A stretch of 40,466 nt of DNA, taken from the IMG/VR virus record IMGVR_UViG_3300049730_000275, positions 1-40,466 of that record. One strand, given 5' to 3'. The stretch's first letter is position 1; each line of letters opens with the position of its first letter. The notes below the pieces were generated by a model. That model saw nothing but the letters and a program-made list of their open reading frames with translations, was not told the origin of the DNA and ran no database searches. Made by a program: the position numbers and the translations under genes. Of this stretch, positions 8,702 to 10,129 are shown in pieces. Source of the stretch: a virus (lineage: Duplodnaviria; Caudoviricetes).

Positions 8702-9453
8702 GATTTCACCTCAGCCTCGCGTCCCAATTGCGCCGCCACCGCCTCCACCGCCGCGTCGTCGGCCGGGATCGTCCCGCCGGCCGCGGCCAGCACCCGCTCG
8801 GCGCCGAACTCGTCGACCAGCGCCTGCAGGCTGCGCCCGTTGGCCGCCGGCTGCCACGCCGCGTCGACGATCGCCCCGTCGGCCCCCCCGCGCGTGTCCT
8901 GCGCGTTCGGGATGGCGATCACGTTGCCCGCCTCGTCGACGTCCGCCCCGAATTCGTCGGCCCGTTTCATCCCCCCGATCACGTCGGCGAACAGCACGTC
9001 GGCGACGAAGCCCACCGCCCGCCACTTGCACATGTTGCGCGGGTACGTCTCCCACGCGCCGCCGGGCTTGATCAGCCCGGCCCGCCTGGCGTCGGCGATC
9101 GTCCAGCCCGTCTCGTACTCCAGCTCCCCGCGCTTCATCCACACCGAGCAGCCGTCCGCGCTCTCCGTGATCCGCAGGCCGTCCAGCTCGCCGGAGCGCA
9201 TCACCAGCGCCAGCGCCCCGCGGGGCGAGAGCGTGGGCTTCCCCTGGATGACCTGGATCAGCTCGAAGCTGGCGGCCAGGCCCAGGCCCAGCTCGGTGCC
9301 CTTCAAGCAAATCGCCATAGCAGCCTCCACCGAACTACAGCCAAACAAGCGTGACTTGTGGAGCACGGGCGCAACTACCTCAATGAGATGCCACCGTTCG
9401 TTGGTCAATGCGTAGTCCGGCGCAACTCGTTCTTGGCGTGGCGCGTCGCTCAT
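8698..9453 (-). CDS. RecT/Red-beta-like single-strand annealing protein
   Basis: GTELGLG..SFELIQVIQGKPTL..ALAL..WTIADARRAGL..WETYPRNM..RA..FADVIGG; sits close to the exonuclease gene. Confidence 0.85.
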   Translation of the reverse strand: MSDAPRQERVAPDYALTNERWHLIEVVAPVLHKSRLFGCSSVEAAMAICLKGTELGLGLAASFELIQVIQGKPTLSPRGALALVMRSGELDGLRITESADGCSVWMKRGELEYETGWTIADARRAGLIKPGGAWETYPRNMCKWRAVGFVADVLFADVIGGMKRADEFGADVDEAGNVIAIPNAQDTRGGADGAIVDAAWQPAANGRSLQALVDEFGAERVLAAAGGTIPADDAAVEAVAAQLGREAEVKS

Positions 9454-10028
9454 CAACTCTTCTCCCGAACACCCATACCTGGCTTGACACCACGAACGAT
9501 TTTGCTGATGGTGGTTTGCGCTACGCCGTGCTGTACTGCAAGTTCGTTTTGCGTGACCGTGCCAGTCCGGTAAAGGCCGCGAATCGCATTTCGTTGATCT
9601 AGCGACAGCGATCCACCGTGCCGCCAGTGCCGCGCACCGCGCGGTGTTGCCTCGGGTTTTGTGTGGCGACCGTGTCGCATTCCCGTTGGTCTTCTGCCGG
9701 GGCGGTTTTTGCTCCAATGGGTCTCCCCATGGACTTGCCGCCCCTTTACTGAGCGATCCGCATGGTTGGTCGCGGGGGTGCCCAAAAACAGGTGCGCCGG
9801 GTTCACGCACGGCGGGTTGTCGCACCCATGACAAATGACGAGACCCTCGGGAATGGGACCGTTTTCGGCGAACCACGCGAACCGGTTTGCACGCCAATTG
9901 CGACCCTGGTACGAGAACACGCCGTAGCCTTTCGGATTACGAAAGCCCGTCCACACCCAACACGCTTTGGGGCCGCAACTCGTATCGACGCGCTGCCAGA
10001 AATCTCGCGCAGTGTTCTTGCGGCCCAT
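9453..10028 (-). CDS. Free-standing HNH homing endonuclease 2 with C-terminal HTH
   Basis: [59 protein letters not shown] overlap in and TGATG overlap out. Confidence 0.92.
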
Positions 10029-10129
10029 TACCACCACGGCATCTCCTGTGTTTCCCCCACGCGGGTGATCAGCTCCCACGTCTCGGGGCGCAGCGCGAGC
10101 GCGGTCGACTGCCCGCTCCTGCTGCTCAT
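10028..10129 (-). pseudogene. 33-aa mini-ORF, probable orphaned original N-terminus of the RecT-like gene
   Basis: [13 protein letters not shown] aligns with ALTNERWHLIEVV of the RecT-like N-terminus (7/13 identical); coupled at both ends. Confidence 0.65.

Follow-up and report, generated by a model that had tools for sequence, protein, structure and literature searches.

Gene hybrids formed by mobile ORFs (mORFs) that carry endonuclease genes are known from fungal mitochondria, at atp6 of Allomyces macrogynus and at atp6, atp9, cox2, and nad3 of Glomus sp. (PMC3630166), in agreement with a first-pass annotation of the DNA analyzed here, which had pointed to end-replacing homing elements of fungal mitochondria. 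In the accessible part of that work, as at the phage locus described below, an endonuclease gene brings a foreign terminus for a host gene, the hybrid gene is whole, and the displaced native terminus is nearer to the closest relative than the inserted one is. The mORF hybrids differ in that they concern 3' ends, LAGLIDADG or GIY-YIG enzymes, and mitochondrial genomes, whereas the present case concerns a 5' end, an HNH enzyme, and a phage. In yeasts, WHO elements of Torulaspora and Lachancea occur at FBA1 (PMC7282813; bioRxiv 10.64898/2026.08.13.744650). There too, according to the available portions of those accounts, the endonuclease has a full-length chimeric host gene on one side and a remnant of the displaced end on the other, and this remnant is a proposed homology arm; the yeast arrangement works without splicing, and at the phage locus no intron signal was found. 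The WHO elements are LAGLIDADG/zinc-finger (HO-like) enzymes that replace the 3' half of FBA1, build clusters, and have demonstrated allele-specific cutting.

Phages carry free-standing endonuclease genes that home without introns, among them the seg and mob genes of T4 (PMC2988022) and lactococcal HNH genes (PMC12724721). Within the text available from these sources, the resemblance to our locus lies in a free-standing HNH that carries a DNA-binding domain at its C terminus and adjoins a conserved gene, coconversion of the neighbor, a start codon overlapping the upstream stop (UAAUG, as in mobE), and one-sided events with microhomology junctions; the genes described there differ in being intergenic and without a stub. 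Aeh1 mobE in nrdA and T4 mobA split a gene into two needed polypeptides, and no replacement end is described as supplied in the portions available. Barth et al. (PMC10448857) report interrupted and spliced genes and HEG islands, and the accessible part of that study contains no end replacement. In the literature searched, which left most subscription papers uncovered so that a prior description is possible, we found no phage HNH that replaces a gene end and leaves a stranded native start.

RESULTS

A phage contig with an HNH gene upstream of a RecT-like gene

The window (the whole stretch of DNA analyzed) is a single 40,466-bp contig with Pfam matches to integrase, repressor, terminase, portal, and capsid genes; the combination of integrase, repressor, and structural genes indicates a temperate phage. 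All 7 runs containing at least half of the region's words were soil metagenomes, 6 of which were flagged as possible sources, and the records of some relatives of the RecT-like gene are from Anaerolineae/Chloroflexota. Among annotated phages, RecT-like relatives were distant only (identity <60% in 264/264 records). The genes of interest lie in a minus-strand run that comprises, in order, an ERCC4 nuclease gene, three small genes (two with helix-turn-helix [HTH] matches), a mini-ORF, the HNH gene, the RecT-like gene, a small gene, a transglycosylase gene, a second HNH gene, and a PD-(D/E)XK nuclease gene. The positions and overlaps first reported for the mini-ORF, the HNH gene, and the RecT-like gene all hold (Table 1). 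A contig from run X7, a run outside those flagged as possible sources, covers 8637 to 11500 with one difference; the layout is therefore not specific to one assembly. No promoter-like site was detected, and terminator-like sites numbered three against 1.3 expected.

Table 1. Features of the HNH/RecT-like locus (window coordinates)
Feature	Position	Strand	Basis or remark
ERCC4 nuclease gene	12141-11284	-	Member of the minus-strand run
Mini-ORF, 33 aa	10129-10028	-	Ends TAATG, overlapping the HNH start
Stranded native RecT-like 5' end, mini-ORF codons 1-27	10049..10129	-	ATGA overlap with the stop of the upstream HTH gene
Probable left, nonhomologous junction, mini-ORF codons 25-27	10049..10057	-	E-T still match P0002; ACA is not native usage
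Foreign mini-ORF tail, 6 codons plus TAA	10028..10048	-	TAATG overlap with HNH; AGGAG 14 nt before ATG; no P0002 match past codon 27
HNH endonuclease gene, 191 aa, open frame	9453..10028	-	HNH_3 domain plus C-terminal helix-turn-helix
GGAG ribosome-binding-like site	9462..9465	-	Within the HNH 3' end; spacing to the RecT-like ATG, 8 nt
RecT-like gene, 251 aa	9453-8698	-	TGATG overlap with HNH
Replacement RecT-like 5' end, codons 1 to ~50	9304..9453	-	Codon bias; residues 15-30; ancestral A-P
Probable right, homologous crossover zone, codons 48-54	9292..9312	-	Codon-usage change point
Native remainder (core and 3' part) of the RecT/Redβ-like single-strand annealing gene	8698..9303	-	P0002 identity; PHROG; fold

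By PHROG, family Pfam matches, and modeled fold, the product of the host gene is a predicted RecT/Redβ-like annealing protein. It matched PHROG 4171 (RecT-like; E = 1e-12) and also 561. Pfam RecT was matched by 17/35 aligned family members at E <= 0.1, and the window protein itself gave no Pfam RecT match. The structure model (pLDDT 82) had only 2 Foldseek matches under 0.001, both to Redβ/RecT (E = 5.4e-5 and 1.6e-4); model residues 15/17 to 160 align to lambda Redβ (7ujl) and A118 RecT (7ub2) (Z 8.2; rmsd 3.9; 134 aligned), with 11 to 16% identity to these solved structures. Because the replaced residues 15 to 50 lie within the annealing domain, the gene needs a replacement start. In the protein collection the RecT-like gene occurs only as a 206-aa form from Met46 (P0001/P0241; window 9316-8698); the absence of the 251-aa form suggests that gene callers skip the foreign start.

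Some further features of the window were recorded. A third HNH gene (34916-35482, plus strand; PF13392, E = 2.4e-10) lies upstream of the terminase region on the strand opposite its neighbors. Immediately upstream of the capsid gene, a 222-aa ORF (29036-28368, minus strand) has 23% A/T-ending codons and no match in Pfam or PHROG; it is possibly an insertion. The DNA methylase gene at 6033-4603 contains a peptide repeat of ~13 residues in three copies (window ~5391-5530, minus strand).

The mini-ORF matches the N terminus of the closest intact relative

Relatives of the RecT-like protein numbered 383, of which 120 were listed; setting aside the window's own protein, which is among these, left 119 for comparison. 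Over the core, the closest intact relative among the 119 listed is P0002 (residues 51 to 170 identical at 102/120, 85%; next, 89). The mini-ORF had been proposed to be an orphaned native N terminus on the basis of a 7/13 residue match to the present start of the RecT-like gene. That match is present, yet it does not rise above chance by itself (local score 28, equalled by 357/2000 shuffles), and the homology is instead borne out through P0002: mini-ORF codons 11 to 27 are identical to the P0002 N terminus at 16/17 residues (local score 91; maximum of 2000 shuffles, 50; next best of the 119 listed relatives, 49). At positions 28 and 29, 110/118 family proteins have A-P, while P0002 and the mini-ORF have G-E, a pair found in 0/118 other listed relatives. 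A family N-terminal HMM, with P0002 among its source proteins, had its best match anywhere in the window in the mini-ORF (E = 6e-4). In P0002, this N terminus is fused directly to the core and does not form a separate gene. The stub shows no sequence decay. Together, these comparisons identify the mini-ORF as the original start of the RecT/Redβ-like gene, now stranded upstream, with P0002 as the one intact protein on which this identification rests, and thereby bear out the proposed orphaning of the native N terminus.

Codon use agrees with the counts first made by hand: 0/25 of the first mini-ORF codons end in A/T, after which come GAA ACA. These two codons encode E-T, both matching P0002, and ACA for Thr occurs 0/139 times in seven native genes. 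The match of E-T to P0002 keeps the left junction from being fixed right in front of GAA ACA. No direct repeat marks the junctions, and we infer a microhomology join at the left one. By eye, the foreign tail of the mini-ORF (six codons) does not resemble the ends of upstream genes listed in relatives. When P0002 residues 1 to 48 were used to look for short orphan proteins, there was no candidate, but the window's own stub was missed as well, and this negative outcome carries little weight; a degenerate stub pattern had 0 matches in viral contigs, and the DNA of P0002 was not found in viral, metagenome, or genome contigs.

The present start of the RecT-like gene differs in ancestry from the stub

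The RecT-like gene changes codon usage abruptly near its 5' end. A/T-ending codons make up 18/51 of the first codons versus 0/50 of the next (Fisher P = 1.2e-6), as in the original count, and 6 of the remaining 150. Set against the core, codons 1 to 50 stand at 18/50 (36%) versus 6/201 (3%) (P = 8e-10) and are indistinguishable from the HNH gene (68/191; P = 1.0). The change point is best placed after codon 50, with 0.89 of the weight within codons 48 to 54. Among 47 window genes tested, with rough gene calls, this step was the strongest (P = 8.6e-10), followed by those of a tape-measure-like gene (6.9e-7) and the PD-(D/E)XK gene (0.004). The tape-measure-like gene (22616-20484, minus strand; labeled from size and position only) has an A/T-ending start of 12/50 versus 22/659 codons (P = 6.9e-7) without an adjoining HNH, and its start may be mis-chosen. 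Across the 72 distinct family genes with the full N-terminal part, the window gene gave 13/36 versus 0/100 (P = 4.8e-9), and the smallest P value among the 71 other distinct relatives was 0.035, in L046, which also has an upstream HNH. The step was present at P < 0.1 in 0/17 GC-rich HNH-less relatives; RecT-like 5' ends that are A/T-rich without an HNH, which would have spoken against the first-pass annotation, were thus not the pattern in these relatives.

The replacement had been read as a recoded copy of the native start. The comparisons argue instead for a foreign allele. Stub and replacement are identical at only 22/51 nucleotides, and the replacement carries the ancestral A-P and T17, whereas the stub and P0002 share the derived G-E and R. 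Replacement residues 15 to 30 agree with P0002 at 6/16, and 61/116 listed relatives are closer. Residues 31 to 50 are closest to P0002 among the listed relatives (15/20; next, 14), and the rare residues A15, L23, L31, K33, and A44 are shared with it; the donor may thus be a near sister lineage, or part of the tract may be drifted native sequence. On residues and codons, then, the present start reads as a foreign allele and not as a synonymously recoded copy, and its donor was probably a sister lineage. Junction placement draws on one intact protein (P0002) and on codon use. Searching with the new N terminus for a donor with the same start gave 2 matches, neither of them a donor: one is a repetitive unrelated protein, the other a 47-aa family N terminus of unknown context. 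No joint skipping the cassette was seen in runs X7 to X10, where contigs drop rare variants and the small-share runs X8 to X10 gave short pieces only.

The HNH gene is linked to its neighbors by overlapping start and stop codons

The HNH domain matched Pfam PF13392 above the cut-off (E = 4.8e-11), and the HTH matches were weak. Core residues C23, H67, C69, C74, H79, and N88 are kept, each invariant in 130/130 homologues; position 48 is N here versus H in 113/130. Solved structures gave no match to the HNH by sequence. Taken together, the gene likely encodes a free-standing homing endonuclease. Start and stop codons overlap along the whole chain: ATGA between the upstream HTH gene and the stub, TAATG between the mini-ORF and the HNH gene, and TGATG between the HNH gene and the RecT-like gene. 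The mini-ORF had been credited with supplying both AGGAG and TAATG to the HNH gene. Both are there, but 14 nt separate AGGAG from the HNH ATG, longer than the usual ribosome-binding spacing; because AGGAG is poorly spaced, TAATG coupling is the safer reading.

HNH genes occur upstream of intact RecT-like genes in relatives

A module of an unannotated gene, an ERCC4 nuclease gene, the RecT-like gene, and a PD-(D/E)XK nuclease gene recurs across the phage group (L001 to L120), and its ERCC4-RecT junction accepts insertions: HNH genes and, by eye, vWA-like genes in L112 and L120. HNH genes that immediately precede a full-length RecT-like gene are patchily distributed (7/121 loci, 5 of them distinct: L011, L013, L046, L113/L116, and L075/L115). 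At the 4 HNH loci with complete upstream DNA, the end of the ERCC4 gene precedes the HNH gene, and the stub is found in none. This arrangement, with the HNH gene followed by an intact RecT-like gene, is the likely donor state. The 61 other distinct loci (>1.2 kb of upstream DNA required; duplicates and short contigs dropped, including L116) have the ERCC4 gene adjacent in 53, an HNH gene intervening in 3, the ERCC4 gene further off in 4, and no ERCC4 gene seen in 1. The window has three other genes where the family usually has the ERCC4 gene; since the upstream order differs, a donor with the usual order would be homologous to this phage on the downstream side only.

In a quick, unfinished HNH tree (91 columns), the RecT-upstream HNHs formed no resolved clade (5 changes; 33/500 shuffles as low), so that a single RecT-targeting lineage and several independent arrivals are equally likely. 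Elsewhere in the window, the second HNH gene (8034-7255, minus strand) has a zinc-finger-like N terminus and overlaps the start of the PD-(D/E)XK nuclease gene. That start (7258-7175, minus strand) has 13/28 A/T-ending first codons versus 21/234, and no stranded PD-(D/E)XK N terminus was found within the window; the arrangement looks like the same coconversion without a stub. In L009, too, an HNH gene lies just upstream of the PD-(D/E)XK nuclease gene.

DISCUSSION

We consider it probable that an HNH gene of the free-standing type and ~50 foreign codons, likely from the allele of another phage, were swapped into the start of the RecT-like gene by one-sided homing, leaving the first 27 native codons as a stub. 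During mixed infection or superinfection, the donor HNH would have cut or nicked the resident gene within native codons ~26 to 50. Homologous recombination would then have repaired the downstream end from the donor gene, with a crossover near codon 50. The upstream end would have found no homology, because three extra genes replace the family's ERCC4 gene here, and may have been joined at microhomology near native codon 26 or 27; for T4 homing, the available part of PMC2988022 describes repair of this one-sided kind, with junctions at microhomology. Through the ATGA/TAATG/TGATG chain, the stub would relay ribosomes to the HNH gene and then to the hybrid recombinase gene. The foreign start likely lacks the cut site, and the hybrid would hence be resistant. 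Finally, ordinary two-sided homing into P0002-type alleles could now use the stub and the upstream genes as its left homology arm, an idea taken from the WHO model as given in the accessible part of PMC7282813.

Ordinary phage mosaicism, in which the HNH gene and the donor 5' end arrive by one homologous and one illegitimate crossover without an HNH cut, the HNH being a passenger or having another target, would yield an identical end state, and we regard it as unlikely. HNH genes abound here, with three in the window, the activity of this one is predicted from sequence, and the quick tree did not resolve a RecT-linked HNH clade, all of which fits a passenger. Against this, the block contains only the HNH gene and the adjoining gene start; both junctions flank one short stretch of the resident gene, as expected from break repair there; and the window's second HNH gene likewise adjoins a foreign-looking gene start.

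It is very unlikely that insertion of the HNH gene duplicated the gene start and that subsequent drift recoded the downstream copy where it stood, under pressure to escape cutting. The closeness of residues 31 to 50 and of several rare residues to P0002 would suit such a history, but it is the stub that shares the derived residues with P0002 while A-P, the ancestral pair, and T17 stand in the downstream copy, the two copies match at few nucleotides, the codon bias of the downstream copy is that of the HNH gene, and the stub is undecayed.

Group I introns have U at the 5' splice site, whereas the stub would end in A. A self-splicing intron that encodes the HNH and joins the stub to the core is also very unlikely, and the least probable of these readings. 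In its favor, excision of 10048-9364 would fuse stub codon 27 in frame with codon 31 and restore the P0002 layout, and phage genes that contain an HNH and are spliced after a short, unannotated first exon are on record (PMC10448857, accessible part). Against it stand the lack of an Rfam intron match in 8600-10800 (two chance matches; E of 2.4 and 4.8), although an intron may be missing from that library, and folding not better than that of shuffles (z = -0.25). In addition, the HNH frame and a complete homologous N terminus with its own GGAG and ATG, needless for an intron, leave no noncoding space in the segment.

By its layout, the locus stands beside described systems. The fungal and yeast elements and the phage layout have in common an endonuclease gene flanked by the whole host gene and by a displaced piece of it, and here the piece is native and the working terminus foreign. 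Compared with the mORF hybrids in the part of that work available, the phage cassette must additionally supply a new start and keep translational coupling. LAGLIDADG/zinc-finger enzymes and 3' replacement at FBA1, which mark WHO elements proper, are absent here; judged against the accessible WHO accounts, the phage locus has one HNH_3 enzyme with a predicted cutting activity, a RecT-like host gene, a 5' swap, and no cluster. An HNH domain with its core residues, a DNA-binding domain (HTH weak), and patchy presence at the locus are what is seen in free-standing HNH endonucleases. All of the ingredients are known, and the end-replacing layout at the 5' end of a phage gene may be seen as an extension of fungal and yeast end-replacing homing, with a predicted HNH activity. 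More tentatively, and as a possibility that falls short of even odds, an ordinary intergenic HNH gene, the state in five relatives, homed one-sidedly into a phage whose upstream gene order differed, and the locus represents the birth of a WHO-like end-replacing homing element with the stub as its arm and relay, a self-contained gene drive directed at the recombinase gene on which phage recombination itself draws.

End-replacing homing has been termed a rare third category in yeasts and is known from fungal mitochondria; here it would act at the 5' end of a phage gene. The proposed history offers a simple route to its origin, namely free-standing homing combined with a missing upstream homology arm, and predicts the cut site to ~75 bp (native codons 26 to 50). 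Such end swaps would make gene termini chimeric and mislead gene callers. If the pattern is general, 5'- and 3'-replacing HNH cassettes would be an undescribed, common class of phage homing element.
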